A DNA stretch of 64,000 nt from Candidatus Babeliales bacterium. GTDB taxonomy: Bacteria > Babelota > Babeliae > Babelales > RVW-14. Shown one piece after another: positions 26,216-53,651 of the stretch. The notes under the pieces were generated by a model that did not search any database, had not been told where the DNA came from, and worked only from the letters and a program-made list of their open reading frames with translations. A program made the position numbers and the translations under genes. Within the stretch, counting starts at the first letter, position 1; each line of letters opens with the position of its first letter. The stretch covers positions 15,078 through 79,077 of the forward strand of contig JAIERW010000005.1 in assembly GCA_019746485.1 (NCBI GenBank), written 5' to 3'.

Positions 26216-26761
26216 GTTTTATTCTTAATTTTATTAGTTTTAGTAATCAACATACGTTTGAACCCTATGATTTTACAACAATAAAATAGGCTTGTAAATA
26301 CGAGAAAAAAACGACTAGATCGACAAAAAGTCACCCCATCTTACAAACAAGCCTGCACCAACAAAGCACAAATAGTATTCTACCTGAAACAAACACCCTT
26401 ATTTATACGAAAAATCAACAACAATCAACAAAATCCCCACTTTTTCCAATTGACTTTATACCCGAGCACTTTATACTGAAACTATCTAAAACATAGGACT
26501 TGTAGGCCCTTTTATTTAATTTCACCACCATAATGAAGTTTAATAAGTACGATACGTTTAATAAGTACACGGCCATAGCTCTCAGCGGGTGCTCTAATCC
26601 GCCATCACTTTGCACGCCATTATTTCTAGCACAAAAATTTTTTAAATTTCATTTTTCTTTTTTACGAAGTCGGGTATCTTGTTGTTCCCAGCTTTTCTTA
26701 ACAGATAGAAAAGACAGGCGTTACCAAATTATTACCAATAATCCTTTTTTATGGAGTGATC

Positions 26762-28192
26762 ATGCAAGAAAAGCTCTCCGGTAAGTTATATAAGTTATGG
26801 GGCATTAAGCGAGAGTTTCTTCTCAAAATATTGCTACTTTCAGCAACGTACTTCTTTTTAATGGCTTGCCATGTGATTTGGAAGCCACTTAAATACTCGC
26901 TCTTTGGGCAAATTGTTGGCACCAGCTCCGTCCCTTTCGCTAAAATTTCTTCTCTGCTTTTCTTAATTCCTCTGATCTTACTTTACTCCAAACTTGTCGA
27001 CTGGCTCAGACGCCACCATCTCCTCTATTTTTTTACTATATCTCACGCACTTGGCGGTCTATTTTTTTACTACTTCATCTCTCATCCCGTTTACGGCATT
27101 GCAAATACTGACACAGGACCAAGTCGTTATATTGGATGGCTCTTTTATTTCTTTATGGAAAGCTTCGACGCCTTTCTTTCAACAACATTCTGGTCATTTG
27201 CTGACTCAGTAAACAACGCTAATGACGCAAAATATTATTATGGCTTTTTTGTTTCAGGTTCAAAAATTGGTGGCATGCTTACCGCAGCAACATTATACTT
27301 TGTGCTCACGGGCGCAACAACAGAAAGCCAGTTAAGCATTATTCCTAACGCACTTCTGATTGGCAGCTGCATGCTCTTTGCCGCAGCAGCATGTATCTAC
27401 TTTCTCGTCAAAAAAGTTCCTGAAGGCATCATGCACGGCTATGAAAAAGTATATCAACTTGAAAAACATAAAGATGTCGAACACATCCCCACGCCAACGC
27501 GGCTTAAAAGCTTTTTACGCTCAATCACCAGCGCCTTTGATGGCTTAACCATCATGGTAAAGAGTTCTTATGTTATGGGTATTTTTTCACTCGTATTTTT
27601 TTATGAAATTATCATAGCAATTTTTGATTACCTGGTTATGATGCGTGCCGAAAGCGCACATCCTTCAATCGGCTCAATGACGGCTTTTTATGCACTATAT
27701 TTCTTCATCATGAATGGTATTGGCTTGTTGATCAGCTTGTTTGGTACAACCCCATTGTTGCGTATTTTGGGCATTAGAATGTCTCTCTTTGCCTTCCCGC
27801 TTATCTGCCTGATTATGCTCGTAACTACCTTTATATTTCCTCAAGGATGGATTTTGTTTGGTACCTTGATCGGTTTACGCGCCTTTAACTATGCACTCAA
27901 CCACCCAACACGAGAAGTCTTATATATTCCAACCACCAAAGATATCAAGTTTAAAGCAAAAACATGGACCGATGCCTTTGGGTCTCGTATTGCTAAAGGA
28001 TTTGGTTCCTTCTTCAACTTGGCGCTTCAAAGTGTTGCTCCGGCTATTGCCTTATTCTCAAGCATCACATTCAGCCTTGGCTTAACAGGCATCTGGCTGG
28101 TTATTACCTACTTTTTAGGTAAGACATTGCAAAGCGCAATCGATGAAAATCGCATTATCGGCGAAACAGAAGAGTCTAAAACCAATAGGTAG
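26762..28192 (+). CDS. ntt: nucleotide transporter, ATP/ADP translocase (TLC/NTT) family, copy 1
   Basis: About 12 TM segments. FWSFADSVNNANDAKYYYGFFVSGSKIGG resembles the chlamydial/rickettsial FWGFANEIT..EAKRFYALFG.GAN. REVLYIPTTKDIKFKAKTWTDAFGSRIAKGFGS resembles EMAYIPLD.E.K.KGKAAIDVV..R.GKSGGS. The comparison is from memory. Start is the ATG at 26762, with the GTG at 26756 as an alternative. Confidence 0.75.
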   Translation: MQEKLSGKLYKLWGIKREFLLKILLLSATYFFLMACHVIWKPLKYSLFGQIVGTSSVPFAKISSLLFLIPLILLYSKLVDWLRRHHLLYFFTISHALGGLFFYYFISHPVYGIANTDTGPSRYIGWLFYFFMESFDAFLSTTFWSFADSVNNANDAKYYYGFFVSGSKIGGMLTAATLYFVLTGATTESQLSIIPNALLIGSCMLFAAAACIYFLVKKVPEGIMHGYEKVYQLEKHKDVEHIPTPTRLKSFLRSITSAFDGLTIMVKSSYVMGIFSLVFFYEIIIAIFDYLVMMRAESAHPSIGSMTAFYALYFFIMNGIGLLISLFGTTPLLRILGIRMSLFAFPLICLIMLVTTFIFPQGWILFGTLIGLRAFNYALNHPTREVLYIPTTKDIKFKAKTWTDAFGSRIAKGFGSFFNLALQSVAPAIALFSSITFSLGLTGIWLVITYFLGKTLQSAIDENRIIGETEESKTNR

Positions 28193-28222: not shown

Positions 28223-29617
28223 ATGATTTTTAGATTTGCCAGGCATATTTCACGAACAATGGAAGAAAAATTACAAATAGATTCAAATGAGATAAAAAAA
28301 TTATTTCTTTTGGCGTTTTCATTTTTCTTCATAATAGCGTCATACTCAATTCTTCGCTCACTTAAAACGTCCATCTTTTTAGGGCTTGTAGGCAAAGAAT
28401 ACCAACCAATGACACGCCTTATTGCTATTGTTATTATGTTTCCAGCAATGCTTGGCTACGCCAAACTGGTTGATAAATTTAAACGCGAACAAATTGTTTA
28501 TACCATCATTGGTATTTATGCTGTTGCAAGCCTTGTCTTTGCTGTACTTTTAGCCCATCCCACCATTGGCGTCCAAAACACTTTCACCAGCCCCTACCGC
28601 TTTATTGGCTGGGGTTTTGAAATTTTCATGGATCTTTACTCAGCCCTGGTGGTAAGCACCTTCTGGAGCTTTGTTAACTCAATCTGCACGCCAATGTTTG
28701 CGGAAAAAGGATACGGCACCATTGTAGCTATCTCTAAAATAGGAGGCATTGCTGCAGCTCTTATTGGCTTATTAATAACAAGATCTGGCCTTGAAACATC
28801 ATCATCAATTCCACTTCTTACCGCAAGCGCTGGCATTTTCTTATTCCTTTCAATTCTCTTGGTACGTTCTATTATCAAAACCATCCCAGATTCATATTTG
28901 CACGGTTATCAAGCAGCGTTTGTTGAAGAGAAGAAGGCTGAAAAGCAACTTAAAAAACCGGGTATCTTTGAAGGCTTACGCTTGATGCTTACCGAGCCGT
29001 ATGTTCTTGGAATTTTCGGCATTTTGTACAGCATGGAAATTATTTCAATCATTTTTGACTATCAAATGCAAGTATTAATGTCTGTTGAAATGAACAACCA
29101 CATTGGCTCTATGAGCTCATTTATGTTTATTTATACAGCAACATTTCAAGTCTGCACCTTCTTATTTGCATTTTTGGGCACCTCAACGTTGTTGAAAAAA
29201 ATTGGGGTTCGTGCTTGCTTAATTATCACTCCGCTTGTACTGGGTCTTCTTTCACTCATCATGCTTACCTGGCCATCGCTCTGGATAACCTTTTTCATTT
29301 TGGTTATTTTACGCGCTCTGAACTACGGCTTCAACCAGCCAGTACGCGAAATACTGTATATTCCAACAGTTAAAGATATCCAATTTAAATCAAAAGCTTG
29401 GATCGAGTCGTTTGGTAAAACCTTTTCCAAGGCCTCCGGTTCAGCCTTTAGTTGGATTTCTATAACCACCAACCCGCTCTTGTGCATCCGAACCAACGCT
29501 ATATTTTCCTTTGCCATTAGCGCTTTTTACCTGGTTGTGGTATTTTTCTTGGGCCGACGCTATGCAAAAACAGTTGAAAATAATGAAGTTATCGGCACAA
29601 AGAGATATAAATCTTGA
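28223..29617 (+). CDS. ntt: nucleotide transporter, ATP/ADP translocase (TLC/NTT) family, copy 2
   Basis: A paralog of the previous gene: FWSFVNSICTPMFAEKGYGTIVAISKIGG and REILYIPTVKDIQFKSKAWIESFGKTFSKASGS. About 12 TM segments. Confidence 0.75.
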   Translation: MIFRFARHISRTMEEKLQIDSNEIKKLFLLAFSFFFIIASYSILRSLKTSIFLGLVGKEYQPMTRLIAIVIMFPAMLGYAKLVDKFKREQIVYTIIGIYAVASLVFAVLLAHPTIGVQNTFTSPYRFIGWGFEIFMDLYSALVVSTFWSFVNSICTPMFAEKGYGTIVAISKIGGIAAALIGLLITRSGLETSSSIPLLTASAGIFLFLSILLVRSIIKTIPDSYLHGYQAAFVEEKKAEKQLKKPGIFEGLRLMLTEPYVLGIFGILYSMEIISIIFDYQMQVLMSVEMNNHIGSMSSFMFIYTATFQVCTFLFAFLGTSTLLKKIGVRACLIITPLVLGLLSLIMLTWPSLWITFFILVILRALNYGFNQPVREILYIPTVKDIQFKSKAWIESFGKTFSKASGSAFSWISITTNPLLCIRTNAIFSFAISAFYLVVVFFLGRRYAKTVENNEVIGTKRYKS

Positions 29618-41317: not shown

Positions 41318-43018
41318 ATGAGATTTATGCGCAAACGTAAAACACTTCTTACTACCTGGCTGCTGCTTGTTTGCAGCATAGCTAATCTTATGTCGCTCAA
41401 CCAAGACCTCGTCCAAAAAAGACCAAAACTAACCATTATCATGGTAGTTGACCAGTTTGCACACCACTACATCCAAAAGCTCAGACCCCACCTAAACCAC
41501 GGGATCAAGATGCTTCTTGAGCAAGGCGTTTGTTATGAAAATGCCTGCCACCCCCACGCCATTCCTGAAACCTGCCCAGGCCACAGCTCGTTGAGCACCG
41601 GAACCGTGCCTACCTACCACGGCGTTACCGGCAACCGCTGGTACAACCAAGACGGCAAACCAGTAGAATTTATTGAAGATGAAGGCAGAGCCTGCAGTGC
41701 CGAAGTTTTTAGAGATCAAGAAACAACGTATGATGACCATCAACGCTCTTCAAGCCACATCATGGTCGACGCTTTTGCCGATCAATTTGTACTTTCGTCG
41801 CCACAAGAAAAACGCAATATTGCTATCTCGCTTTCCATAAAATCAAAGGCTGCCATGGCTACCGCTAACCGCATGGGCAAAGCAATTTGGTTTGACGATA
41901 AAACCGGCCGCTTTACCTCAAGCAAACATTATTACAACAAACTGCCCAACTGGCTTGAAGAGTTTAACGAACAAAAGGCGCCCACCAAGCTTGAAAACGT
42001 TCGCTGGGAAACGCTTTACCCACGCACCAGCGCAGCGTATGATTTTCCGCACATTGATAACTATGATTATGCGGCATTAGATTTTCCATTAATTTCAGAA
42101 AAACCAATTCCTATCGATCGCGATAACGAATGCCCGTACGATCTTTACAACAAAACACCCCACTCAAACCAGCTTCTGTTTGATTTAGCAAAAAAATGTA
42201 TCGACAGCACCATCGCCCCCAACGCGCCCAACGATATGGTTATGTGGCTGTGCTTGAGCAGCCTTGATTTACTTGGCCATTATTATGGCCCAGACAGCTT
42301 GGAAGCGATAGACATGGTGTACCATTTAGACCAACAAATTAAAGAGTTTATGTTATATGCACAATACAAAATGGGTAAGTCGAACGTGCTCTTTGCACTA
42401 ACCGGCGACCACGGCATACAACCAATTCAAGAGCTTTCATACAAAAAAGGCATTACGCAGGCCCAGCGCGTTATGGTTCAGCCATTGATTGAAAAAATGA
42501 ATGAGTTTATTGAAGAAAAGTACGATCTTAAAAATGCAGTACAAACATTTGAATCAACCTACTTTGTAATGAACAAACAACAAATGGCAACCAAAAATAC
42601 TGAAGAACAAGCAGCTATCTTGACTGATCTTAAAGACATGTTACTTCAAGAAGCGTCAATCAAGCGCGTGTGGACGCGCGACGAGCTGCACAAAGCAACG
42701 TTTCGTACACAAGATGTTGAAAGCTATTACAAGAACCATTTGTACGACTCGCGCCTGGGCGAGCTGATTATCATGCCACAACCTTACTGCCTGCTCACAC
42801 GTTATCCAAAAGGCTGCTCGCACAATACGCCCTACGACTACGACACACACGTACCGCTTATTGTGTATCAGCACGGGCGCTTTGCGCCAAAAACAATCAC
42901 GCAAAAAGTTTTAATACCACAACTGCCCACCACGCTTTCGTATCTTTTGGGCGTTGTGCAACCATCTGCCGGCACCTTTCCTGTGCTGCCAGGCATTTTT
43001 GACGAGGAAAGCCCATGA
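41318..43018 (+). CDS. alkaline-phosphatase superfamily protein, nucleotide pyrophosphatase/phosphodiesterase (NPP)-like, secreted, copy 1
   Basis: Signal LLTTWLLLVCSIANLMS. VVDQFAHHY; metal/nucleophile region PETCPGHSSLSTGTVPTYHGVTGNRWY (T.P.H..l.TG..P..HG...N); LDLLGHYYGP; LTGDHG; HNTPYDYDTHVPLIVY. Confidence 0.7.
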   Translation: MRFMRKRKTLLTTWLLLVCSIANLMSLNQDLVQKRPKLTIIMVVDQFAHHYIQKLRPHLNHGIKMLLEQGVCYENACHPHAIPETCPGHSSLSTGTVPTYHGVTGNRWYNQDGKPVEFIEDEGRACSAEVFRDQETTYDDHQRSSSHIMVDAFADQFVLSSPQEKRNIAISLSIKSKAAMATANRMGKAIWFDDKTGRFTSSKHYYNKLPNWLEEFNEQKAPTKLENVRWETLYPRTSAAYDFPHIDNYDYAALDFPLISEKPIPIDRDNECPYDLYNKTPHSNQLLFDLAKKCIDSTIAPNAPNDMVMWLCLSSLDLLGHYYGPDSLEAIDMVYHLDQQIKEFMLYAQYKMGKSNVLFALTGDHGIQPIQELSYKKGITQAQRVMVQPLIEKMNEFIEEKYDLKNAVQTFESTYFVMNKQQMATKNTEEQAAILTDLKDMLLQEASIKRVWTRDELHKATFRTQDVESYYKNHLYDSRLGELIIMPQPYCLLTRYPKGCSHNTPYDYDTHVPLIVYQHGRFAPKTITQKVLIPQLPTTLSYLLGVVQPSAGTFPVLPGIFDEESP

Positions 43019-44727
43019 TTAAAAAAATAGCCAAAAGCCTGGCAGCAATTTTTGTGATTAGCATACTGCTGGCATACGTGCGCCCCTCGAGTGAGCTCGG
43101 GACTAAAGGCGAGGTTAAGGTAGCAAAACCAAAAATCGTTCTCGTTTTTGTAGTCGACCAATTTGCCCATCACTACCTGGCTATGCTCAGGCCTTACTTG
43201 AACTTTGGTTTAAAAAAGCTTGTTGAAGACGGCATAAATTTTGAGCGCGCCAACCATCCGCACGGCGCACCGGCAACCGCAACCGGCCACGCTACCTTGA
43301 GCACCGGCACCTGCGCCAAAGACCATGGCTACATTTTAAATGCCTGGGCCGACGGCAACGGTAAAAAGATTCGCGCAACGCAAGACGACGCCCAAACAGC
43401 AGCAGTGCTGGGCCGCAACGGACCTATGAACTATGGCGCTTCGCCAAAGCTTTTAATGGTAGACACACTTTCAGACCAACTGGTAGCACAATCTACACCC
43501 GAGCACAAAAATACCGTTTTCTCGCTCTCGTTTAAAACGCGCGCCGCCATTGCTATGGCAGGCAAGGGGGGGCATGCTATTTGGTTTAACGACGATGAAA
43601 ATATGTTTACCAGCAGCAAAGCATACTACCAAGAAATTCCTGAATGGGTGCAAGATTTTAATAAGCGCAACGACGTTGCAAAAATTAAAGAAATCGACTG
43701 GCAGTTATTCCATCCCGAAAATCATGAAATCTACGAGCAATTTGCCAACAAAGATTACCGCTTTGCCGGCACCACGCTCCGTCTGGCTGGCAATAAAACA
43801 GCCTTAAATTTTGGTCAACGCGAAAAGGCGGGAAAATATGATGATCAGCAATTATTTCAACGTACACCCATGGCCAACGGTATGCTCGCCGATTTAACCA
43901 AAGAATGTATTGATAAGCATTTTGAAAAAGACGGAAGTGAAACACTTTTTGTATGGGTTGGTTTTTCGGCACTGGACAAAATTGGCCACGTGTTTGGGCC
44001 CAACAGCTTAGAAATGATCGACACTATTTGTCATTTGGACAAACAAATTGAAGATTTAATGAACTACGCACAAAACAAAGCAGGCGCACACAATGCTCTT
44101 TTTGCTGTTTCAGGCGACCATGGCGTTTCACCAATTCCTGAGTTAATGCACGAGCGAGGCTTTGGGTTTGTCAGCCGCCTGCTCAATAAAGATTTAACCA
44201 ACGGTATGAACAACCTGATTGAAGAAAAGTATGGCATAAGCGGCATTGTAAAAACATTTAAAACGACCATGTTTTATCTCAACAAGCAAGCTCTGGCAAA
44301 AGTTGATCAAGAAAAACAGAACGCAATTATTGAAGATTTAAGAAATTATTTACAAGCGCAACCGGGCATGTGTAAAGTTTTTACAACAAAAGAATTAGTT
44401 GAGTCAACCTTTGACCCGACTTCGTTTGAATATTTGTATCAAAACCAAACGTATGTGGGCCGTACCGGCGACTTGATTTGCATGCCAAACATGTACTCAT
44501 TTATTGCCAAACGCGCCAACGGCACCTCGCACAAAACGCCGTACGACTACGACACACACGTGCCACTTATTTTGTATCAAGCAGGTTCACTTGAAAAGAA
44601 ACGGATTATTGAAAAGGTTTCTACAACACAACTAGCACCAACACTGGCCAAAATTTTGCAGATTAACAAGCCTTCGGCAGCAGCGCAGCAAGTACTACCA
44701 GGCATTTTTGAAGAAGAAGGAAATTAA
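43015..44727 (+). CDS. alkaline-phosphatase superfamily protein, NPP-like, secreted, copy 2
   Basis: A paralog of copy 1 with a 4-nt ATGA overlap. VVDQFAHHY, HGAPATATGHATLSTGTCAKDHGYILNAW, LDKIGHVFGP, VSGDHG, HKTPYDYDTHVPLILY. Confidence 0.7.
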   Translation: MIKKIAKSLAAIFVISILLAYVRPSSELGTKGEVKVAKPKIVLVFVVDQFAHHYLAMLRPYLNFGLKKLVEDGINFERANHPHGAPATATGHATLSTGTCAKDHGYILNAWADGNGKKIRATQDDAQTAAVLGRNGPMNYGASPKLLMVDTLSDQLVAQSTPEHKNTVFSLSFKTRAAIAMAGKGGHAIWFNDDENMFTSSKAYYQEIPEWVQDFNKRNDVAKIKEIDWQLFHPENHEIYEQFANKDYRFAGTTLRLAGNKTALNFGQREKAGKYDDQQLFQRTPMANGMLADLTKECIDKHFEKDGSETLFVWVGFSALDKIGHVFGPNSLEMIDTICHLDKQIEDLMNYAQNKAGAHNALFAVSGDHGVSPIPELMHERGFGFVSRLLNKDLTNGMNNLIEEKYGISGIVKTFKTTMFYLNKQALAKVDQEKQNAIIEDLRNYLQAQPGMCKVFTTKELVESTFDPTSFEYLYQNQTYVGRTGDLICMPNMYSFIAKRANGTSHKTPYDYDTHVPLILYQAGSLEKKRIIEKVSTTQLAPTLAKILQINKPSAAAQQVLPGIFEEEGN

Positions 44728-44751: not shown

Positions 44752-46833
44752 GTGATGAAGTTTATAAAAAGTACGTTACTTTTTTTGATTACACTTGGTT
44801 TGCATAGCTCTTGCGGCGCAAGTGGCGCGCGAATGAGTGCGCAAAGCATGCGGGGAATGAGCACGCTAGAACAGTACGGCAAACCCTTGCCACCACCACA
44901 CGCAATACCAATGCCACCGCCAGGCGGGCCACCAGCTGTTTCTCAACCGCAAGCAAGACCCACTTCTGAACAAAGCTTTACTCAGCAATTGCAGGCAGTA
45001 AAACGAACTCCTGTAGAACAACCAGTGGGTCAGCCACACGGATTTTTAAGATATACCGACGGTCCTTTACCAGCAACGCCACCAGCCGGCAAACCAAAGG
45101 GATTTCTTGAATATTCAACTCCTAATCAACAAGGCGGCTTGTCCAGATTTGGTACACCGCAAGCTCCACCAGTGCACGCAACGCCAACATCACAGCCCGT
45201 TCAAGCAAAACAAAAAACAAGCATGTGGAGCAACACAAAAACTCAAGCAAAAAGTTTTGGTGCTACACTAAAAAAAGCTTTAGGACTCGGATCTAAAAAA
45301 TCAGCAAAAAAAACTGATCAAGTTTTAACTACGCTCGTTGAACAAAAAACGTCGCCACGCTCTAAGCTCAAAGATATGGCACCTGATTCCATTGCACAGC
45401 AACGCGCACTTACAACGCTACAAATCGTACAACACCCAGGTTCAGACCGACCACTAGATCCGCCAGGAAAACAACGCGATCCAAGTATCATTCGCACACC
45501 AGCAAGCCCGCCAACACCCGAACAGCAAACAAGAATACTCGAACAACAAGTAAGCCAAACGCAAAAAAGAAGTGGAGACCTACTCAAAGAAATGAAAGAA
45601 ATCCAGGCACAACAAAAAAATCCAGACTTAACACCAAAACAACAAGCTAAATTACAGGAGCAGCTTGAACAAAAAACACCAGCTTACGTGCGAGAAATGA
45701 TCAAGTTGGGAAGCTTAGAAAAAGCTCAAAAAACTCAGCAAGCAGAAAGAATTAGCAAAGAAATGGGTGCTTTTCCTTTGCCATCACAGAAACAAACAAC
45801 GCAAGCTCTATTGCCACGACCTGAACCCACAACAACGGTAGCACCTCCAAAACCACCAATGCTTCCAGAACTCTTGCAACCTCGCCCACGCTCACTGCCG
45901 CCAATACCAACTCAGACACCAACTGAGCAGCCAAAGCAACAACAATCAACGCCGCCTCCACCAGTGCCAAGAGATACCCCAAGCAGGCAACCAGAATCAG
46001 AAAAATTTATAGGACCACTACAACCAAAACCAACATTAACAAGATTAAGCGACTTACCAACACCAACGCCACTTGGTCCTAAACCAAGCTCAGTAACCCA
46101 ACAAGAACAACAACCTCCTGCATCACAGCCAACACAAACTCCTCTGCAAAAATTTGGCCCAGCACCACAACCAACACCCCTTCAAATGATGGGACAGGCA
46201 CCGCAACCACCTACATCACAAACACCACCGCCTCCTCCACCAGCACCGGTTGAAACCAAACAATCTGCAAACTTGCTAGAACAAATTCGAGCAGGAGCCC
46301 AGTTGCAAAAAGTTGACCGACCAACTCAGCAAGGGACTCAACCACAATCAACGCCTCCGGCACTAGACCCTGCATTGGTAGCAGGACTACAGGCTCGTAG
46401 AAAGAGCCAAAGATTGGATGTTCAAGATAACCAGGAAATAGCTTCTGCAACCAAAACGCCTCAACCAACAACTACCACACCACCAAGTACAGCAGCAAGC
46501 TTTGGTCAAACACCGCCACCACCAATAGCCGGCACATTTCCGCCAGCTCCACCACCGCCACCGGCACCAAGCCAAGAAAGATCACCACGGCCAGTTAGTT
46601 TAGATACCGGTTTGCAACAACAAATTCAAGCAGGTAATTTTAAACTGAGAACAACTGAACAAAAACCGCGCCCACTCTCAACACCGCCAACAACAGCACC
46701 AAATCTTCAAGGTACACTTGAAGGAGCGCTTGCAGACAGAGGGCTGATACCAGCTGCTCAAACACAAAAAAAACCACCAAAAACAGCAGAAGAAATAGCC
46801 GCAAAACGAGCCAGAAAAGAAGAGTGGCAGTAA
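44752..46833 (+). CDS. secreted Pro/Gln-rich protein with polyproline tracts and two WH2-like / WASP-central-like modules (cluster protein A)
   Basis: GTG at 44752 or ATG at 44755 after RBS aggag. Signal MKFIKSTLLFLITLGLHSSCGA. PPPPPPAP (46225-46248); SANLLEQIRAGAQLQKVD (46264-46317); ALVAGLQARRKSQRLDVQDNQE (46372-46437); PPAPPPPPAP (46540-46569); LQQQIQAGNFKLRTTEQK (46612-46665). It ends KEEWQ*. Confidence 0.8.
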   Translation: MMKFIKSTLLFLITLGLHSSCGASGARMSAQSMRGMSTLEQYGKPLPPPHAIPMPPPGGPPAVSQPQARPTSEQSFTQQLQAVKRTPVEQPVGQPHGFLRYTDGPLPATPPAGKPKGFLEYSTPNQQGGLSRFGTPQAPPVHATPTSQPVQAKQKTSMWSNTKTQAKSFGATLKKALGLGSKKSAKKTDQVLTTLVEQKTSPRSKLKDMAPDSIAQQRALTTLQIVQHPGSDRPLDPPGKQRDPSIIRTPASPPTPEQQTRILEQQVSQTQKRSGDLLKEMKEIQAQQKNPDLTPKQQAKLQEQLEQKTPAYVREMIKLGSLEKAQKTQQAERISKEMGAFPLPSQKQTTQALLPRPEPTTTVAPPKPPMLPELLQPRPRSLPPIPTQTPTEQPKQQQSTPPPPVPRDTPSRQPESEKFIGPLQPKPTLTRLSDLPTPTPLGPKPSSVTQQEQQPPASQPTQTPLQKFGPAPQPTPLQMMGQAPQPPTSQTPPPPPPAPVETKQSANLLEQIRAGAQLQKVDRPTQQGTQPQSTPPALDPALVAGLQARRKSQRLDVQDNQEIASATKTPQPTTTTPPSTAASFGQTPPPPIAGTFPPAPPPPPAPSQERSPRPVSLDTGLQQQIQAGNFKLRTTEQKPRPLSTPPTTAPNLQGTLEGALADRGLIPAAQTQKKPPKTAEEIAAKRARKEEWQ

Positions 46834-46865
46834 AACTAACGTAAACAAAGCAAAAAAAACTATGA

Positions 46866-46892
46866 GGGGATGCATATTGGCATCCCCTTTTT
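46866..46892 (+). terminator. rho-independent terminator after protein A
   Basis: ggggatgc-atattg-gcatcccc followed by ttttt. Confidence 0.85.
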
Positions 46893-46916
46893 CATTAAAG
46901 AAGTTTCCTCAAACCA

Positions 46917-46946
46917 TTGAGTTTGCTGAGTGCAAATTGCTATAAT
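46917..46946 (+). promoter_or_regulatory. candidate sigma-70 promoter for protein B
   Basis: ttgagt, 18 nt spacer, tataat. The same ttgagt-N18-ta(t/c)aat layout recurs at 49183. Confidence 0.5.
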
Positions 46947-47000
46947 TAAGCCATGAATAATGCTGCCAGGAATTTTTGAAAAAGAAAAAGGGAACTGCCC

Positions 47001-49073
47001 ATGAATAAAAGATATTCTTACGTGCTTGTTGTAGCGTTTTTAATGCTGTGCACTCAGCCTTGCCAGGCGTTACCAAACTGGCAAAGTATTCAATTTAAAG
47101 TTGCCGATTTTGCTACTGCTGCAAAACAAAAAATAAGTACTGTGTTTCAAAACGTACAAGATGCACGCAAAACCAAACAAGCAATTCAACAAGAAACAAC
47201 AAGCTTAAAAAAATGGACCCCACAAGACGCAACACCAGCAAGACTTCAGCAAATTGAAGCCGAAAAAAAAGCTGGCCTTGATATCCGTCGTGCAGAACGA
47301 ACCGCAGATTATAACCTGAACGCACAATACCGCCTTCAAACATTTGAGCAACGACAAGCACAAAAAAAAGGTGTTGAGTACTTCGTTCCTTCGCCAACAC
47401 TTCAAAAACGTACAGCACTTACTGAACAAAGTTTAAGTAATATTACCGCAAAGCTACCTGTTTCGTATGGTTCGCCAAATCTTGGCGTCATTACCAGCCC
47501 AACTGTTCGTAACGCATTAAGCAGACAACAAGAAGAAGCAGCCTTGCAACAAAAGCGTCAAGCATTAGGAGCTCCTGCACCAAGTCAAACGGCACCATGG
47601 CGACCAGCATATGAAGCTTCATTTGAACTTGGAGAAAGACCCAATTTTCCTCAAAAGATTGGTATTCAATCACCACAGCAACAAGAGCGGCTTGAACAAA
47701 ACAAACAGTTGCGTGAACAGCGGCTTGCGCAACCAACTAGTCCAACACCAACCTCAATAACAACGGCAATACAGCCGCAACCAGTAGTTACACCACCGGA
47801 ACCACAACCAAGTCAACGCTGGATTAGTGTACGACCTACTGAATTACAAATACCACCAACACCAACGCCTCGCCCTTCCGTTGTTAGTTCAACTCAGGGA
47901 AGAATACAAACGATGCAAGAGTTTCAACGTCTTGTCCCTCAACCTGTCACCACCAAACCAAGTGCTCCAGACATAAAACAACCGGCAACAGAAACAACAC
48001 AGCCATTACAAACCGGTCGCATTTCGCAAGAAGCACAAGCACGGATTAGACCAATACAGCATTTTCAAGAACTCGCAGCAACACAACCAGTAGCCACCGA
48101 ACAACAAAGAACCATGATGCAAAAAGCGCAAGAAGCAGCCAAAACCGCTGGCAAAATGACGCTGAAAGGCCTTGAAAAATTGGCTGATATTTCACAGGCG
48201 CCCTCTCGAGGTATAGCAACCGTTCGCGATGCCGCTTTAGAAAAGGCATGGCAAGGAACCAAAGTTGTTGGCAAAAAAGTTGCCAGCGAAGCTCAAGTTG
48301 CTGGTCAGTGGGTTAAAGAACAAGTAAAACCAACACCAACTTCACAACTCTCACCAACTATGCAAAGAATTGATGCATCAATGAAAAGTACTGGTGCAGA
48401 ATTGGACAAACTCCAACGTAGCTATGAAAAAGAAAAAGACCCCGCAAAACAAGCCGAACTTGCAACTCAAATAAAAGCAAAAACCACAGAATTGAGTCAA
48501 CTGTCTGCAAGTTACACACGACGAGAAATCGAAGAAGCGTCTGCCGTACGGCCAACAACGCCCCTTGAAGGAAGAGCGCAACAACAAAAAACACTTGCTG
48601 AATGGCAAGCTGGTCAAACGCAAAGAAAGCTTCAAGAACAAAGAATAGCCGAGGCTGCTTGGGAAGGCACAAAAGCGCCAGCAACTCCAGCACCTCAAAA
48701 ACCACTATCAACCACGCTAACATCTGAATACAACGCACCTCTTCCTCCACGACCAACAATAACAACAACACCGATGCTCTCAAAACAACCATCAACTCAA
48801 GCTTCTCCACTCACGGGGCTGAGTGAAACACAACCTTTGCCTAAACTTACGCAAGGTCGCGCCGCAATACCAGCTGGCACGCGCAGACCGCCAACGCCTA
48901 GAGCCACAATAGAAACAACACTCGCAGCCCCAGATGCAGCTGGGCCAAGACAAGCCCCAGCGGGACAGACACAGGCACCGGCTCCAGCAGCAACCATGGC
49001 ACCCGGTAGGCCCGGTTTTGGCAACATCGATCTTGGTAGCGTTACTTTGAGAAGAACCGAACCAACGCCATAA
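47001..49073 (+). CDS. secreted Pro/Gln/Thr-rich protein (cluster protein B), C-terminal WH2/thymosin-like motif
   Basis: Signal MNKRYSYVLVVAFLMLCTQPCQA. It shares MMQKAQEAAKTAG (48114-48152) and GQWVKEQVKP with protein C. It ends GNIDLGSVTLRRTEPTP* (motif at 49026-49061). Confidence 0.8.
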   Translation: MNKRYSYVLVVAFLMLCTQPCQALPNWQSIQFKVADFATAAKQKISTVFQNVQDARKTKQAIQQETTSLKKWTPQDATPARLQQIEAEKKAGLDIRRAERTADYNLNAQYRLQTFEQRQAQKKGVEYFVPSPTLQKRTALTEQSLSNITAKLPVSYGSPNLGVITSPTVRNALSRQQEEAALQQKRQALGAPAPSQTAPWRPAYEASFELGERPNFPQKIGIQSPQQQERLEQNKQLREQRLAQPTSPTPTSITTAIQPQPVVTPPEPQPSQRWISVRPTELQIPPTPTPRPSVVSSTQGRIQTMQEFQRLVPQPVTTKPSAPDIKQPATETTQPLQTGRISQEAQARIRPIQHFQELAATQPVATEQQRTMMQKAQEAAKTAGKMTLKGLEKLADISQAPSRGIATVRDAALEKAWQGTKVVGKKVASEAQVAGQWVKEQVKPTPTSQLSPTMQRIDASMKSTGAELDKLQRSYEKEKDPAKQAELATQIKAKTTELSQLSASYTRREIEEASAVRPTTPLEGRAQQQKTLAEWQAGQTQRKLQEQRIAEAAWEGTKAPATPAPQKPLSTTLTSEYNAPLPPRPTITTTPMLSKQPSTQASPLTGLSETQPLPKLTQGRAAIPAGTRRPPTPRATIETTLAAPDAAGPRQAPAGQTQAPAPAATMAPGRPGFGNIDLGSVTLRRTEPTP

Positions 49074-49112
49074 CTCACACCAGCATGAAGCCCACGTAAA
49101 CTGAATAGAATT

Positions 49113-49150
49113 AAAACCAAGAGGGGTGCGCGCGCACCCCTCTTGGTTTT
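49113..49150. terminator. long palindromic terminator after protein B
   Basis: aaaaccaagaggggtgcg/cgcgcacccctcttggtttt. Confidence 0.85.
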
Positions 49151-49182
49151 AATTAAAAATATTTCTTTTATAAATAAATTTA

Positions 49183-49212
49183 TTGAGTTTTATCAACCAC
49201 AACTGCTACAAT
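49183..49212 (+). promoter_or_regulatory. candidate sigma-70 promoter for protein C
   Basis: ttgagt, 18 nt spacer, tacaat. Confidence 0.5.
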
Positions 49213-49280
49213 CAAAGTAGTGAATATGAACAAATACACACATTGGTACTTTTTAAATAGTATTTTAAAGGAGATAAACC

Positions 49281-50714
49281 ATGAAGATTATGCGTAGATT
49301 TATGCTGGCACTTGTTGCTTGCTTGTTTGCAAGCGTAACAGTGCAGGCGGCAGGAAGAAGACCGTCAGGCCCACCAGCAGGGTCTCCTTTCCAACCAGGC
49401 GCCGAAGCATTTCGACAAGCCGCACAACTAAAAACCGTACAAGGACCTCAACAAAGTACTTGGCAAAAAATTAAGGCCGCTGTCGCAAACCCAGTTCAAA
49501 CAGCAAAAAATATCTGGTCAGGCACAACAACTCAACCAAAACAAGTACATAGCGGCGAGTTAAGCTCAGCTCCTGCTGGCGGCATGGTTCGCAGCATGCA
49601 ACAACAAGTAAGAGGGCAAATGACGCAACCGGCAGCACCTGTCACCACCAAAGGCCTTGGTTACTACGTCCAACAACCCTTTCAAGCTGCAAAAACAGCT
49701 GCACAATCAGCTTATCAAAAAGTAACAACGCCAAGCGGACCAGCACGATACACGCCAGCAGTTGGCGAACAACCACAAAAACCACAATACAGCACCGTAC
49801 AAAAGGTTTTAAGTCCTGTTCGCTATTACCAAGATAGCAAAGCTTATAGCGCCGACAAAAAAACAGCACAACAGCAAACTGCCAACTTGCAAGGAGAAAT
49901 GAAAGCCAAAGGGCAATTGCTAACACCGGAAGAAACCGCAAAAAGAACCCTCATGCAAAAAGCTCAAGAAGCTGCAACAGCCGCTGGCAGCAAAGTTGCC
50001 TCCGGAGCACAATTTGTTGGCGGACAAGTTCGTCAGGCAGCAACAGCTACTGGCCAAGCCGTAGGGCAAGCTGGCCAATGGGTTCAACAACAAGTACGAC
50101 CTGCTCGTCGTGAAAATGTTGCAGCACCAACGCCGCTTGTACCCGGAGCTCCAGGCACAGTTACTGGCAGAATGCAAACACCAACTGGTCAGTATGTTGA
50201 TGTAACAAGACGCCAAACACCCGCAGTTGGACCAGTACAACCAGCTTCACCACCACAACCTGAACCAATAACACAAAAAAGTCTTGAAGCACGAGAAAAA
50301 GATGTACAAAAATTAATGGCACAATCAAACCAAACTAACAAAGAAGCTCTTAAAGATCCTTATAATCAAGAAAAACAAGCAGCAGCTCAAGCTGCACAAG
50401 ACACGGCATTTGCAGCACGCACACAGCTAACACAGGACAAAAAGGCCTTTGCAGCCCAAACAGGAGCTACGCCAACGCGACCAGCTGCACAAATACCCGC
50501 TCCATCGCCAGAACAGCAAAGAATCACTGAACAAAATCGCGGCATACTACAAGAGGCTTTAAGCAACCCACTTGGCCGCTATGCAACCCAGCCAGCTCCA
50601 AGCCAACAGCGACAACCTCTGCCTATCCCGCCAGTAGGGCCAGGAAAACCGTCAACCTTTATTCCTCAATCTCGCCCAGTCCAACAAGATGTAGCGCATG
50701 CTACCAACTTCTAA
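49281..50714 (+). CDS. secreted Gln/Pro/Ala-rich protein (cluster protein C), paralog of B
   Basis: Signal MKIMRRFMLALVACLFASVTVQA. LMQKAQEAATAAG (49950-49988) and AGQWVQQQVRP match B. Confidence 0.8.
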   Translation: MKIMRRFMLALVACLFASVTVQAAGRRPSGPPAGSPFQPGAEAFRQAAQLKTVQGPQQSTWQKIKAAVANPVQTAKNIWSGTTTQPKQVHSGELSSAPAGGMVRSMQQQVRGQMTQPAAPVTTKGLGYYVQQPFQAAKTAAQSAYQKVTTPSGPARYTPAVGEQPQKPQYSTVQKVLSPVRYYQDSKAYSADKKTAQQQTANLQGEMKAKGQLLTPEETAKRTLMQKAQEAATAAGSKVASGAQFVGGQVRQAATATGQAVGQAGQWVQQQVRPARRENVAAPTPLVPGAPGTVTGRMQTPTGQYVDVTRRQTPAVGPVQPASPPQPEPITQKSLEAREKDVQKLMAQSNQTNKEALKDPYNQEKQAAAQAAQDTAFAARTQLTQDKKAFAAQTGATPTRPAAQIPAPSPEQQRITEQNRGILQEALSNPLGRYATQPAPSQQRQPLPIPPVGPGKPSTFIPQSRPVQQDVAHATNF

Positions 50715-50734
50715 AAACTTTAAAAACTACTACG

Positions 50735-50772
50735 ACGGGGGATGCATTTGCGCATCCCCCGTTTTCTTTTTT
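50735..50772 (+). terminator. rho-independent terminator after protein C
   Basis: acgggggatgc-atttgc-gcatcccccgt followed by tttctttttt. The stem is related to the terminator after protein A. Confidence 0.85.
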
Positions 50773-50778
50773 AAACCG

Positions 50779-50808
50779 TTGCTTCCGCCCTCTCAACCAT
50801 GCTACAAT
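50779..50808 (+). promoter_or_regulatory. candidate sigma-70 promoter for the small gene and protein D
   Basis: ttgctt, 18 nt spacer, tacaat. The caacca..gctacaat context resembles the 49183 promoter. Confidence 0.4.
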
Positions 50809-50861
50809 TATTACAGATAGAAAGACAAAAACCACATAAAAAATTAAAAAAAGGTACCTAC

Positions 50862-51242
50862 ATGGATGTTGGCATGAAAATAAAACTCTTCGTGGCCGCA
50901 ATAACACTCACGGCATCATATGCCATTACCACTTTTAGCCCGGGGCCTGAAGAACTCCCACAACAAAGCCTTTTTTCTTACGCCGGCAAGACAGTAAAAA
51001 AAACTGCTAAAGACATTATTTTTGTGGTCAGCGGCAACTACACACGCGGCAGCACGCAACCGGTACGCCAACAACGCCAACAAGCAAAGCTAAGCGCTCT
51101 CTACCAACAGATTATTGCAGGACAAGTACACGAAAATGTTGGCAGCAAAATTGCAAAACTTGAGGCTAAAATAAAAATGAATTACGGCAAAAGCACCTTA
51201 CAGGCTCTACAACAAAAATGTGGCATTGCTCTTACCGACTAA
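50862..51242 (+). CDS. small secreted protein (hypothetical) within the Pro-rich cluster
   Basis: Start at MDVGMKIKLFVAAITLTASYA (ATG at 50862 or 50874). About 125 aa. It contains LYQQIIAGQVHENV, which is only weakly WH2-like. Confidence 0.55.
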   Translation: MDVGMKIKLFVAAITLTASYAITTFSPGPEELPQQSLFSYAGKTVKKTAKDIIFVVSGNYTRGSTQPVRQQRQQAKLSALYQQIIAGQVHENVGSKIAKLEAKIKMNYGKSTLQALQQKCGIALTD

Positions 51243-51256
51243 TCAAAAGGAAAAAA

Positions 51257-53548
51257 ATGGTACGTCAACAGCACCTTTTTTTATTCGCACTCATTACCGC
51301 GCTAGGCATAGCGCACACGCCCGTGCAGCCGGCAGCGCTTTTGAGACAGATGTTTAAACCTTTCCAGGCAAAAAGCACCGCTAGCCAAAAAGAAAAAAGT
51401 GATACGAGTGCAGCAGGCGTTTTTGACAAAAGCCCAACAGCGAAAAAACCAAAGACTCTAACCCCCGATGAAGAGCTTGCTCAAAGATTAGGAACACCCC
51501 GCCCAGCGCCAACCCCTGGCGCTCCACAACCATTTATGCCCGTACCTCCCGGCCTTGGGCACCCACCAGCACCCACGGCCGGCATTGGCGCTCCAGCACC
51601 AGTAGCAACGGCAAAGCCACCGACAAGCGGCATGACTAACCAAGGAAAACCCGGTGTGTTTGGCAAAACTAAAGATGCCTATTCTGATATTACAACACGC
51701 CTTGAAACGGCACAAAAAACAGCACGTGATGCAATTGCCACCGGCACTCCTGGCCTTTTTCAACTACAAAAACAAACAACGCAACAACTTCAAACTGGTC
51801 AACAAGTAAACTCTTACAGTGCAGACCCCAAAACAAGTTCTTATGCTGCAACGGGCACTAAAAGTCCTTACGAAGGTGGACAAAGCCGCTACGCAGGTAC
51901 TGGCACTCCAAGCGTTTATACAACAGCACCTGGTTCAAGCGCCTACGCACCAACACCACCACCACTGGTACAACGACCTTCTGCACCAACTCTGCCTCAG
52001 GGCATTCGACCAACGCCAGCGCAACTGGCGCGACGACCACAAGCTTTTGAACCAAGTCCAACAACACCAACCCGTCCGACACTACCACCAAAACCTATGT
52101 ATATGCAGCGCCCAGCAACTCCGCCAGCAACACTACCAAAACCTGCCGGCTCGCCTGCTGCATGGGCAGAAGTTGTGACTAAACGACCAACGCAAACCCC
52201 GCCAACAACTACTCACCCACAAACACCAGCACCAACACTGAGCAAAGCACAAGAAGCAGAACTCAATAAACAAATAAAAGCTCATGCAGCACAGCAAAAA
52301 GCGCAAGCTGCCGCTGACGCACAACAACAAAAAGAACAAGCAGTGATGCAACAACGACTTAAAGAAATCGAAACAGCAATAGCAAAAGGCGACCCCAAAA
52401 CATTAAAAATATATGATGATCGAGCCAAAGCTATGGGCCTTACACGTGACGAATACATACTTGGTCTGCAATCAGGAGCACTTACTCAAGCACAACGCCG
52501 ACAAATGCGCAGCGAACAGGATGCAAGCCGCGGCATGCTTTACAACATGACAATGGGAGATATGCGTCGAGACATTCAACAAGCAAAAGACGCTCTTACA
52601 TCGCCAATCCAAACTATGAAAAAAGAATGGGCACAGTCAATGAGCCAATTCAAAAGCCCGCTACGAGAGTTCCAGCAAGCCACTCAACAATTTCGGACAG
52701 ACAAAGCAACACTACGAACTGATATAACCAGTGCTATAGAAAAAATTAAACAATCAAGTGCTGCCAAAACGATCTTAAGTGCAAAAGATCAAGCCGATAT
52801 CAAAGCAAAAGAAGTTGCACTTAAAGCTCGTTATTATGGCCAACCAGATGCCGCTAAAAAAGTTAAAGCAGAACTTGATGTTTACAAAAAAGGTGTAAGC
52901 GACAAGCGCGCTTTGACAACAATAGAAAATCAATCAATTGTCACCAAACGCCAAGAAATTAAACAAGACTTAATGCAACAGGCACAAGATCATTACCAAG
53001 CAGCTGAAGCACGTGTTACACAAAAACAAGAATCATTAGCTGCTCTTGGCGAACCAAAGCAGGGAGAAGCACCAGATCTCATTGCACGCCGCAAAGCACT
53101 TACAACTTCTCTTGCTGCTGACCAAAAACAACTTGCTAACCTCCATCCAGAATCACCGCAGGTAATGCAGCAGATAGCAAAACTTGAGCAAAAGGCTATG
53201 ACTGACTTTACCAAGCAATTACCGCAAGGACGCGCTGAAGCTCGTCAGATCAGCGAAGAGATAAAGGGCCTTCTTTCAGAACAAACTCGTGCAAATCCTG
53301 CAAGAAAAACAGAGATTACACAACTGATCAACGAAAAAGCGGCACGCTATAACGACGTAACAAGCCCTCCGGTAACAGCAGTACTGCCAACACCAACGCT
53401 CGCACTGCCACTTGGCACAAATCCTGCAACGCGTATTCAACAACAACCAGCACCAACAGCCACTATCACTGGGCAAAGCCCGCCAATCACTCAACAGTCT
53501 GGTATTCAACGTAGTCAGACTACAACGACTGTTACGGTTTATGAATAG
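51257..53548 (+). CDS. secreted Pro/Thr/Gln-rich and coiled-coil protein (cluster protein D)
   Basis: ATG at 51257 after aaagga. Signal MVRQQHLFLFALITALGIAHT. The N-terminal half is P/T/A-rich and the C-terminal half is Q/K/A coiled coil. DEELAQRLGTPRPAP resembles the C-terminus of protein E. Confidence 0.8.
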   Translation: MVRQQHLFLFALITALGIAHTPVQPAALLRQMFKPFQAKSTASQKEKSDTSAAGVFDKSPTAKKPKTLTPDEELAQRLGTPRPAPTPGAPQPFMPVPPGLGHPPAPTAGIGAPAPVATAKPPTSGMTNQGKPGVFGKTKDAYSDITTRLETAQKTARDAIATGTPGLFQLQKQTTQQLQTGQQVNSYSADPKTSSYAATGTKSPYEGGQSRYAGTGTPSVYTTAPGSSAYAPTPPPLVQRPSAPTLPQGIRPTPAQLARRPQAFEPSPTTPTRPTLPPKPMYMQRPATPPATLPKPAGSPAAWAEVVTKRPTQTPPTTTHPQTPAPTLSKAQEAELNKQIKAHAAQQKAQAAADAQQQKEQAVMQQRLKEIETAIAKGDPKTLKIYDDRAKAMGLTRDEYILGLQSGALTQAQRRQMRSEQDASRGMLYNMTMGDMRRDIQQAKDALTSPIQTMKKEWAQSMSQFKSPLREFQQATQQFRTDKATLRTDITSAIEKIKQSSAAKTILSAKDQADIKAKEVALKARYYGQPDAAKKVKAELDVYKKGVSDKRALTTIENQSIVTKRQEIKQDLMQQAQDHYQAAEARVTQKQESLAALGEPKQGEAPDLIARRKALTTSLAADQKQLANLHPESPQVMQQIAKLEQKAMTDFTKQLPQGRAEARQISEEIKGLLSEQTRANPARKTEITQLINEKAARYNDVTSPPVTAVLPTPTLALPLGTNPATRIQQQPAPTATITGQSPPITQQSGIQRSQTTTTVTVYE

Positions 53549-53651
53549 CCCTTCAACACGGTGCCAGCAAATTTTGTTGGATTATTGTTTTATGACAAGC
53601 GTTTGTGCTATTTTAAATAAAAGGAAATCTGTTTTTTGGGGAGAATAGAAA

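Follow-up and report, generated by a model that had tools for sequence, protein, structure and literature searches.

A predicted exported WH2/proline-rich protein of a Candidatus Babeliales bacterium as a candidate host actin effector

Gene A and the motifs of its C-terminal region

The subject of this analysis is gene A, an open reading frame (ORF) of 2,082 bases (44752–46833, plus strand) in a 64,000-nucleotide stretch of a Candidatus Babeliales genome (contig JAIERW010000005.1; the whole stretch is called the window below). Its 693-amino-acid product, protein A, is rich in Pro, Gln and Thr (17%, 13% and 10%, respectively), mostly disordered and exported by prediction, and its last ~200 residues combine proline tracts with motifs that resemble eukaryotic WH2 motifs. 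The product is identical to the NCBI hypothetical protein K2X40_01735, from a Candidatus Babeliales bacterium metagenome-assembled genome (MAG); the order lies within Candidatus Babelota, also called Dependentiae or TM6. Gene A has a G+C content of ~45%, the same as the adjoining genes, and the antisense ORFs across the region are short and without support. A word-indexed search returned one ortholog, P0002 (K2W90_03180, likewise listed by NCBI as hypothetical), in the Babeliales MAG GCA_019749895.1, which is 61–70% identical over its full length.

The motif-bearing part is encoded by the final 621 bases of the ORF. A first-pass annotation of this DNA, made from its letters alone, had described the peptide through seven quoted sub-motifs; translation of 46213–46836 on the plus strand returned that peptide, and a scripted check placed all seven exactly where the annotation had put them. 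A module with the order proline tract, WH2, STPP linker and amphipathic helix is present twice in this region, with all of its elements on the plus strand. In the first copy, proline tract 1 (PPPPPPAP, 46225–46248), a candidate profilin-binding site that is invariant in the ortholog, precedes WH2-1 (SANLLEQIRAGAQLQKVD, amino acids 505–522, 46264–46317) and helix 1 (LDPALVAGLQARRKSQRLD, amino acids 538–556, 46363–46419), which is amphipathic and basic and occupies the place taken by the C helix in WASP or by the F-actin-binding (FAB) motif in Ena/VASP; the helix segment originally quoted, ALVAGLQARRKSQRLDVQDNQE, lies at 46372–46437. The second copy starts with proline tract 2 (PPAPPPPPAP, 46540–46569), where the ortholog is proline-rich but differs in its exact sequence, and continues with WH2-2 (LQQQIQAGNFKLRTTEQK, amino acids 621–638, 46612–46665) and helix 2 (LQGTLEGALADRGLI, 46705–46749). 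The protein closes with a helix that contains a conserved Trp (KTAEEIAAKRARKEEWQ, 46780–46830; net charge +1), and the stop codon comes directly after its C-terminal end (AEEIAAKRARKEEWQ, 46786–46830). The sequence FPPAP (amino acids 595–599, 46534–46548), which lies where proline tract 2 begins, is FPxΦP-like and so of the EVH1-ligand class; as it is missing from the ortholog, it was rejected as a conserved EVH1 ligand.

The Pfam WH2 family (PF02205) matched amino acids 507–522 of protein A with 16.7 bits (E = 0.006) when the whole protein was searched, and the isolated WH2-1 fragment with 18.9 bits (E = 0.0012); the gathering score of the family is 23.1 bits. The ortholog exceeded this score both as a whole (27.4 bits, E = 2.4e-6) and as a WH2-1 fragment (23.9 bits). 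In the PF02205 search that the first-pass annotation had proposed as a check, the ortholog thus scored above the gathering threshold and protein A below it. None of six composition-matched neighbouring proteins gave a WH2 match in Pfam, and a strict WH2 regular expression had WH2-1 as its single match in the six frames of the window. The pattern LLxxI ... G-x-x-L-[KR]-[KR]-[VT] is present as LLEQIRAGAQLQKV in protein A and as LLQQIRAGAQLKKA in the ortholog. Both orthologs retain the key positions, namely the hydrophobic residues L508, L509 and I512, the glycine G515 and L518-x-K-V, and conservation of this kind was the other check that the annotation had named.

Comparison of the C-terminal 206 amino acids with all PDB chains (phmmer) solely yielded N-WASP WH2 constructs (E = 0.0024), with ANLLEQIRAGAQLQKVD of protein A aligned to AALLDQIREGAQLKKVE of N-WASP. 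The two-sequence profile gave E = 1.8e-6 for the N-WASP chain 2vcp_D and E = 3e-9 for 3m3n_W, the latter value being inflated because this engineered chain has three WH2 copies; the WH2s of Spire, WAVE2 and WAVE1 followed as weak matches. The best PDB relatives of WH2-1 are WH2s that were co-crystallised with actin. Thirteen of its 17 residues are identical to the first WH2 (WH2a) of N-WASP, and a query-shuffle test gave z = 10.7 against this motif and z = 8.5 against WAVE1. Additionally, the AlphaFold2 (AF2) model has a helix at residues 509–513, within WH2-1. At the level of sequence, the reading of WH2-1 as a genuine N-WASP/WAVE-type WH2 motif is statistically supported, and the first-pass annotation, which had come to the same view from the fit to the consensus, was right on this point.

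The duplicated module and the C-terminal tail

Local alignment of module 1 with module 2, over WH2, linker and helix, gave a shuffle p = 0.002 in protein A and p = 0.0002 (z about 7) in the ortholog, and the STPP linker common to both modules falls inside the alignment. Since this self-alignment is beyond chance, the duplication that the annotation had noticed is real, and WH2-2 is most readily understood as a paralog that has diverged from WH2-1. Compared singly, the two WH2 motifs gave p = 0.022 in protein A and p = 0.0004 in the ortholog, and helices 1 and 2 are likewise paralogous (p = 0.009). WH2-2 (LQQQIQAGNFKLRTTE) fits the WH2 pattern only with a one-residue insertion, an additional residue standing between Gly and Leu, and it carries an LKKTE-like motif, LRTTE. 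The thymosin-like character that had been ascribed to the second WH2 is weak: WH2-2 of protein A, searched alone, had no match in Pfam or in the PDB, and the ortholog fragment reached just 15 bits (E = 0.02) against the Pfam WH2 family.

Helix 1 is identical to its counterpart in the ortholog at 19 of 19 residues (nonsynonymous rate, dN = 0), and AF2 predicts a helix at 540–558. Its distance from WH2-1 equals that of the C helix in N-WASP, and in the HMMER alignments the match extends via the STPP linker into it, where ALVAGLQARRK is paired with ALMEVMQKRSK of N-WASP. Taken alone, helix 1 gave a shuffle p = 0.027 against the N-WASP C helix and p = 0.12 against the WAVE1 CA region; against VASP, the values were p = 0.03 for the G-actin-binding (GAB) and FAB motifs together and p = 0.12 for FAB alone. 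Its L-x-A-R-R-K core resembles the LARRRK of the VASP FAB. A PDB search with helix 1 alone found just unrelated proteins and no WASP or WAVE chain. We regard the similarity of helix 1 to a WASP C helix as marginal in sequence terms: the WASP-like central helix of the first-pass annotation keeps its spacing from the WH2 and its place in the N-WASP alignment, but it does not stand out when it is compared by itself.

These findings bear on the possibility that protein A is a true class I nucleation-promoting factor (NPF). WH2-1 would then deliver actin, helix 1 and/or helix 2 would be the C helix in the Arp2/Arp3 groove, the Trp would sit in the ARPC1 or Arp3 pocket, and the duplicated module would supply two CA elements. 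The order of proline-rich domain (PRD), WH2 and C helix and the W-to-C spacing are as in N-WASP, the phmmer and hmmsearch alignments reach the C helix through STPP, and helix 1 has both its p value against N-WASP C and its invariance between the orthologs in favour of such a role. Moreover, Arp2/3 binds two CA elements (PMC10944109), and RickA, with its WCA, is a bacterial precedent. However, the RR of helix 1 is followed by polar K-S-Q, where the consensus of the WASP and WAVE C helices is hydrophobic, and helix 1 alone retrieved none of these chains. The same helices could instead act on WASP itself. EspFU/TccP repeats relieve WASP autoinhibition through the GBD, and two amphipathic helices beside proline tracts, the first of them weakly C-helix-like, might bind the GBD in the same manner. 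We consider this highly improbable: the PDB searches brought up no EspFU similarity, and activation of WASP would leave a genuine WH2 unexplained.

Measured against the published definition of the WCA region (PMC9569871), protein A has the proline-rich domain and the WH2, and it lacks the acidic A segment with its Trp. In the Arp2/3 complex, the C helix docks in the barbed-end grooves of Arp2 and Arp3, and the Trp of the acidic segment enters pockets of ARPC1 and Arp3 (PMC10944109). In protein A, the last 17 amino acids (KTAEEIAAKRARKEEWQ) contain five K/R against four D/E, and the stretch after helix 1 (LDVQDNQEIASATK; LDVQDNQE) has three acidic residues, no aromatic residue and no Trp. The ortholog tail (KTAEEIAAKQATKKEWKQN) is net basic too, with its Trp conserved four residues from the end. 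The conservation of the Trp, with an E before it (KEEW / KKEW), speaks for the NPF reading; against it, AF2 places the Trp inside a helix and not in a disordered acidic tail. Since the A element is absent, we do not file protein A as a WCA protein, and we have lowered our estimate for a WCA NPF to the point where we think it quite unlikely. The missing element does not lower the case that the protein acts on actin.

Among 177,635 distinct PDB sequences, the tail (amino acids 646–693) had a single match, the actin-bound β-thymosin domain 1 of ciboulot (3u9z_C; E = 0.33 with the sequence in phmmer, E = 0.2 with the profile in hmmsearch), and it retrieved no Arp2/3-bound CA peptide. The aligned helices read NLQGTLEG against NLKSQLEG and KTAEEIAAK against PTAEDVAAE. 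In this pairing, helix 2 falls on the N-terminal helix that ciboulot domain 1 places in the actin cleft (NLKSQLEGF), and KTAEEIAAKRARKEEWQ, the last helix of protein A, falls on its counterpart at the C-terminus of ciboulot and the β-thymosins (PTAEDVAAEKTQQ). A pairwise shuffle test of the tail of protein A against ciboulot gave z = 8.7. When module 2 and the tail were compared by hhalign with a small alignment of four β-thymosin sequences, P was about 0.1, which is not significant; Pfam Thymosin (PF01290) had no match up to E = 10, and LKKT is replaced by LIPA in protein A and by LLPT in the ortholog. The β-thymosin reading of the tail may be taken as a lead, and it gains weight because the sole near-threshold PDB match is an actin-bound WH2-class domain. 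The C-terminal Trp helix appears to resemble the β-thymosin/ciboulot C-helix more than an Arp2/3-binding A motif. The first-pass annotation had likened the place of this Trp to that of the Arp2/3-contacting Trp of WCA domains, noting that its surroundings are mixed basic and acidic; with a net basic tail, no acidic region and ciboulot as the match instead, that assignment is not supported.

The ciboulot alignment also lends itself to a different outcome, in which protein A would buffer or sequester G-actin. WH2-2 and the tail would act as repeats of the β-thymosin/ciboulot/actobindin type, with the C-helix capping the pointed face of the monomer, and polymerisation of host actin would be lowered or redirected, which might, for instance, serve to block phagosome maturation or host motility. 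Consistent with this, the alignment to actin-bound ciboulot domain 1 spans the tail from one end to the other and takes in the N-helix (NL...LEG) as well as the C-helix (TAE[ED][IV]AA), and the LRTTEQK of WH2-2 is followed by PRPLS, which may be compared with QEKNPLPS of thymosin β4. However, the hhalign and Pfam results, the LIPA/LLPT at the LKKT position and a z score of just 3.2 for the ortholog tail all speak against a sequesterer. Furthermore, proline tracts beside a WH2 are usual in promoters of assembly, not in sequesterers. We hold this reading to be improbable.

The rest of protein A and its genomic neighbourhood

The N-terminus of protein A (MMKFIKSTLLFLITLGLHSSCGASG) looks like a signal peptide. 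The segment encoded by 44752–44826 on the plus strand (MMKFIKSTLLFLITLGLHSSCGA, then SG) has, as read from the sequence, a basic n-region, an 11-amino-acid hydrophobic core and small residues at -3/-1; it is 83% identical to that of the ortholog, and AF2 predicts a helix at amino acids 3–14. A lipoprotein reading was ruled out by inspection of the sequence, since LHSSC/VHDSC is no lipobox. The listed start is GTG 44752, and NCBI has the same 693-amino-acid product; the true start may be one codon later, because the start of the ortholog corresponds to ATG 44755.

Beyond the signal peptide, amino acids 90–250 (45019–45501, plus strand) form a conserved disordered region with 86% amino acid identity to the ortholog and a ratio of nonsynonymous to synonymous rates (dN/dS) of 0.34. 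AF2 places a basic amphipathic helix at amino acids 163–176, after which comes LGLGSKKSAKK; a membrane- or host-binding role for this region would be a guess. It also contains a pair of tyrosine motifs, HGFLRYTD ... KGFLEYST (amino acids 97–122, 45040–45117), that is duplicated and unchanged in the ortholog, and to see a host kinase or SH2-type site in the tyrosines of GFLRYTD and GFLEYST, as in TARP or Tir, is pure speculation. The sole confident fold in protein A is an antiparallel two-helix hairpin (amino acids 256–288 and 295–337; 45517–45762, plus strand), which AF2 models with a predicted local distance difference test (pLDDT) score of 90–96. The modelled hairpin is a candidate oligomerisation or spacer element, and oligomerisation, if true, would bear on any nucleation model.

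Constraint on the protein appears unevenly distributed between its parts. The five helical/WH2 motifs have a dN/dS of 0.28 and 79% identity between the orthologs, and the intervening linkers 0.82 and 52%; the underlying counts are small and come from two sequences only. When 1.84 billion representative proteins were searched exhaustively by HMMER with the two-sequence full-length profile, no further homologs were found, although such a search is blind to relatives that share only a 17-amino-acid motif. Two scans of genome contigs and one of metagenome contigs found no related loci, and looking up the exact sequence of P0001 gave no record. The AF2 model, run on the two-sequence alignment, has a mean pLDDT of 47, with 521 of the 693 residues below 50, and its short helices (509–513, 540–558, 655–661 and 679–692) coincide with the motif positions. 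This predicted picture of disorder with short helices is typical of what is expected for short linear motifs that fold on binding.

Directly upstream of gene A lie two tandem genes for type I phosphodiesterases/nucleotide pyrophosphatases (41318–43018 and 43015–44727, plus strand; PF01663, E = 1e-27 and 1e-34). They are paralogous, have signal-peptide-like starts, overlap by four bases and are separated from gene A by a 24-base gap; they are probably co-transcribed with it. The same pair is found upstream of gene A in the ortholog locus (L001, 6309–9975). A consensus scan placed a terminator-like G+C-rich hairpin with a 10-bp stem 31 bases past the gene A stop (46864–46889, plus strand), and the region's best promoter-like site (46917–46946, consensus scan) after this hairpin and before the next gene. 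It is therefore probable that the transcription unit opening with the two phosphodiesterase genes closes with gene A. Genes A and C are each followed by one of the two strongest terminator-like hairpins (46864–46889 and 50734–50763, plus strand); these have a near-identical stem, GGGGATGC ... GCATCCCC, and this suggests a repeated terminator or an element like a repetitive extragenic palindrome (REP). Synteny with the ortholog locus is kept through dnaX, der, an ABC ATPase gene, hpf, one minus-strand gene, the two phosphodiesterase genes and gene A, and it continues past gene A into a run of ORFs without a Pfam match.

Gene A is the first of seven same-strand ORFs (44752–58972; starts at 44752, 47001, 49281, 51218, 53652, 54997 and 56075), and the six ORFs that follow it span 47001–58972. 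The members of this island have hydrophobic, signal-peptide-like N-termini, are A/Q/P/T-rich and have no Pfam domain, and their order is conserved in the second Babeliales MAG (L001, 10001–22046). To stand at the head of a conserved island of low-complexity orphans is what might be expected of a disordered protein of the envelope, periplasm or surface (a spacer, an adhesin or a matrix component) with no relation to actin, whose WH2 likeness would have arisen by chance. The Sec signal as the only export signal and the Pfam score of protein A, which is under threshold, fit this view, and in a family of two members conservation cannot tell actin binding from other constraints. However, chance does not readily account for 13 of 17 residues identical to the first WH2 of N-WASP, with E values that, once corrected for library size, are 1e-3 to 1e-6, nor for the lack of any WH2 match in the six composition-matched neighbours. 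Moreover, the motif has been duplicated along with its proline tract, as expected for recruitment of actin or profilin-actin, and the host-dependent lifestyle makes eukaryotic targets plausible. On balance we judge an actin-unrelated function unlikely, if by no means negligible.

Other products of the island have features of their own. Proteins B and C have a common paralogous segment (MQKAQEAAKTAGK...). Protein B ends in ...GFGNIDLGSVTLRRTEPTP (49005–49070) and its ortholog in ...ELDTAIREGLALVGTR (L001, about 14430–14479), sequences that are loosely WH2-like by eye. Extra WH2-like motifs in the C-terminus of protein B (…IDLGSVTLRRTEPTP) and in the N-terminus of protein C (…AFRQAAQLKTVQ) were considered and rejected, as they have no Pfam support, and the WH2-like end of protein B is not conserved in B's ortholog. 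Protein G (965 amino acids, 56075–58972) has a Met/Gly/Ala-rich hydrophobic stretch, GIGMAGIALMGLLPMLADPGMSGMMQSMMMMAAQQGGGMNAQMPGGMQTSMM (57150–57320, approximately amino acids 360–415), after which come two long similar segments (…PEKLAKKITGDKNLRNYVANVLGVITDISAQLEAAQ… and …PANLMSKLRTNKDVSAYVDNLLGVVETLSGQLKDAQ…) that suggest an internal duplication.

The other genes of the window are of ordinary bacterial kinds and include those for Lon, SbcC, a MutS-like protein and MatE, two tRNAs and the signal recognition particle (SRP) RNA. A TLC-family ATP/ADP translocase gene (26756–28192, plus strand; PF03219, E = 9e-18) indicates an energy-parasitic intracellular lifestyle, and the adjoining ORF (28223–29617), which is of similar size, may be a second translocase copy. 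The translocase and the origin of the DNA in a Candidatus Babeliales MAG point to an obligately host-dependent, intracellular bacterium. In the cultured member of the Dependentiae, Chromulinavorax, 44% of the coding sequences and 78% of the ankyrin-repeat proteins, which are candidate effectors, have signal peptides, and the bacterium, which is found in the cytoplasm of its host, sheds vesicles from its outer membrane (PMC6561590).

A proposed role in host actin assembly and its relation to known systems

Taken together, the motifs make it likely that protein A binds actin at all. Our favoured reading goes further, and we give it about an even chance: protein A would be exported via Sec and, as a multivalent factor built on WH2 motifs and proline tracts, would assemble host actin independently of Arp2/3. 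The signal peptide and the reports on Dependentiae suggest that, after Sec export, the protein would reach the bacterial surface or the host cytoplasm. There, the proline tracts would recruit profilin-actin, and WH2-1, the identity of which as a motif is clear, would bind in the barbed-face cleft of G-actin; the same probably holds for WH2-2, helix 1 and the β-thymosin-like tail. Two to four actin monomers would be held close, and/or profilin-actin would be fed to barbed ends from a surface, and the outcome would be nucleation or elongation of filaments without Arp2/3. We liken this to the action of tandem-WH2 nucleators (VopL/F, TARP, RavH, Spire, Cobl) or to the PRD-WH2 elongation of WASP/VASP-type tails.

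Such a mechanism has some support in earlier work. The PRD together with the WH2 is the part of NPFs that recruits actin and profilin-actin (PMC9569871), and in bacterial effectors such as RavH nucleation needs only tandem WH2-like domains (PMC13481308). Tandem-WH2 nucleators (Spire, Cobl, VopL/F, RavH) have at least three actin-binding WH2 or WH2-like motifs with short linkers between them, in many cases together with a domain for oligomerisation or membrane binding. Protein A offers one firm WH2, one paralogous WH2 and two additional helices that may or may not bind actin, with about 17 amino acids between WH2-2 and helix 2. Because the acidic Arp2/3-binding element is absent, protein A is not a canonical WCA NPF. 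The candidate Arp2/3 or actin NPF of the first-pass annotation is therefore retained in part: the WH2, the polyproline and the duplication stand, but the A element is missing and the C helix is marginal.

Several points weigh against assembly of host actin by protein A. First, we infer actin binding from the motifs, and protein A's own WH2-1 (16.7–18.9 bits) stays under the Pfam gathering score. Second, WH2-2, helix 1 and the tail are each non-significant on their own, and the similarity to ciboulot falls to z = 3.2 in the ortholog tail. Third, WH2-1 and WH2-2 are about 95 residues apart, far more than in the arrays of Spire, Cobl and the VopL type. Fourth, the protein has the Sec signal alone, with no known route across the outer membrane or the vacuolar membrane. 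Finally, the evidence from conservation is thin because just two sequences exist.

As to origin, transfer of the whole gene from a eukaryote was ruled out, since the sole homolog among the 1.84 billion representative proteins is the Babeliales ortholog and the G+C content is native. Counted from the phmmer alignment, about 40% of some 53 aligned positions in the V-C stretch, which includes the STPP linker, are identical in protein A and N-WASP, a value that is high for a disordered segment. Either capture of a small cassette or convergence may account for it. Conceivably, a V-C cassette of ~55 amino acids was captured from a protist WASP-family gene, duplicated and rewired, and now engages Arp2/3 or the actin pointed face via a non-acidic Trp tail. 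We think this very doubtful; if true, it would represent a new solution for the function of 'A', and the first actin-based host manipulation or motility in the phylum.

Dependentiae/Babelota are widespread, and nearly all are uncultured intracellular parasites of protists; little is known of how they manipulate their hosts past lists of ankyrin-repeat and orphan secreted proteins (PMC6561590). In full-text searches, no paper was found that connects WH2 motifs or actin effectors with Dependentiae, Babeliales or TM6. A WH2/proline-rich protein with a signal peptide turns this into a concrete and testable hypothesis, namely that Dependentiae act on host actin. Protein A and its ortholog are a new two-member family among the known bacterial WH2 mimics, and the first candidate in the phylum.

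Known bacterial effectors with WH2 motifs that act on actin include RickA and Sca2 of Rickettsia, TARP of Chlamydia, VopL/VopF of Vibrio, and MavH and RavH of Legionella. In these intracellular or host-targeting bacteria, one to three WH2 or WH2-like motifs, often accompanied by proline-rich regions, drive host actin assembly, and the proteins that carry them are largely disordered and otherwise unrelated (PMC9569871, PMC10381072, PMC13481308, bioRxiv 10.1101/2025.08.14.669974). Protein A differs from them in that no sequence relationship was detected, in its origin from the phylum Babelota/Dependentiae, and in having a Sec signal in place of an autotransporter domain or a recognised signal for type III or type IV secretion (T3SS/T4SS). 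No dimerisation domain of the VopL type, domain of the RavH/MavH type for binding phosphatidylinositol 3-phosphate (PI(3)P) or acidic tail of the RickA type was identified in it. It adds an independent family to the bacterial WH2 mimics RickA, TARP, VopL/F, Sca2, MavH and RavH.

Of the eukaryotic systems, the β-thymosin/WH2 repeat proteins (thymosin β4, Drosophila ciboulot, Acanthamoeba actobindin) resemble protein A in the tail, the whole of which (amino acids 650–693) aligns with ciboulot domain 1 as crystallised on actin (3u9z_C); they differ in having LKKT where protein A and its ortholog have LIPA/LLPT, and protein A would carry such a domain within a 693-amino-acid exported bacterial protein. 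Like the EVH2 region of Ena/VASP, protein A has a proline tract, a WH2-like G-actin site and a basic helix about 20 residues on; unlike Ena/VASP, it has neither EVH1 nor VASP_tetra (PF08776) in Pfam at E up to 10, and the similarity is non-significant. With the WASP family (N-WASP, WASP, WAVE/Scar) it has in common a proline tract followed by WH2, a roughly 20-amino-acid STPP linker and an amphipathic helix with an Arg pair at the C-helix position. In contrast to that family, it has an N-terminal Sec signal, no WH1, GBD or SHD in Pfam, no acidic Trp-containing A region, and no homology beyond the motif. Protein A is unusually close to the V-C region of N-WASP yet has no acidic tail, and is therefore a natural variant with which the PRD-W-C unit might be probed without A.

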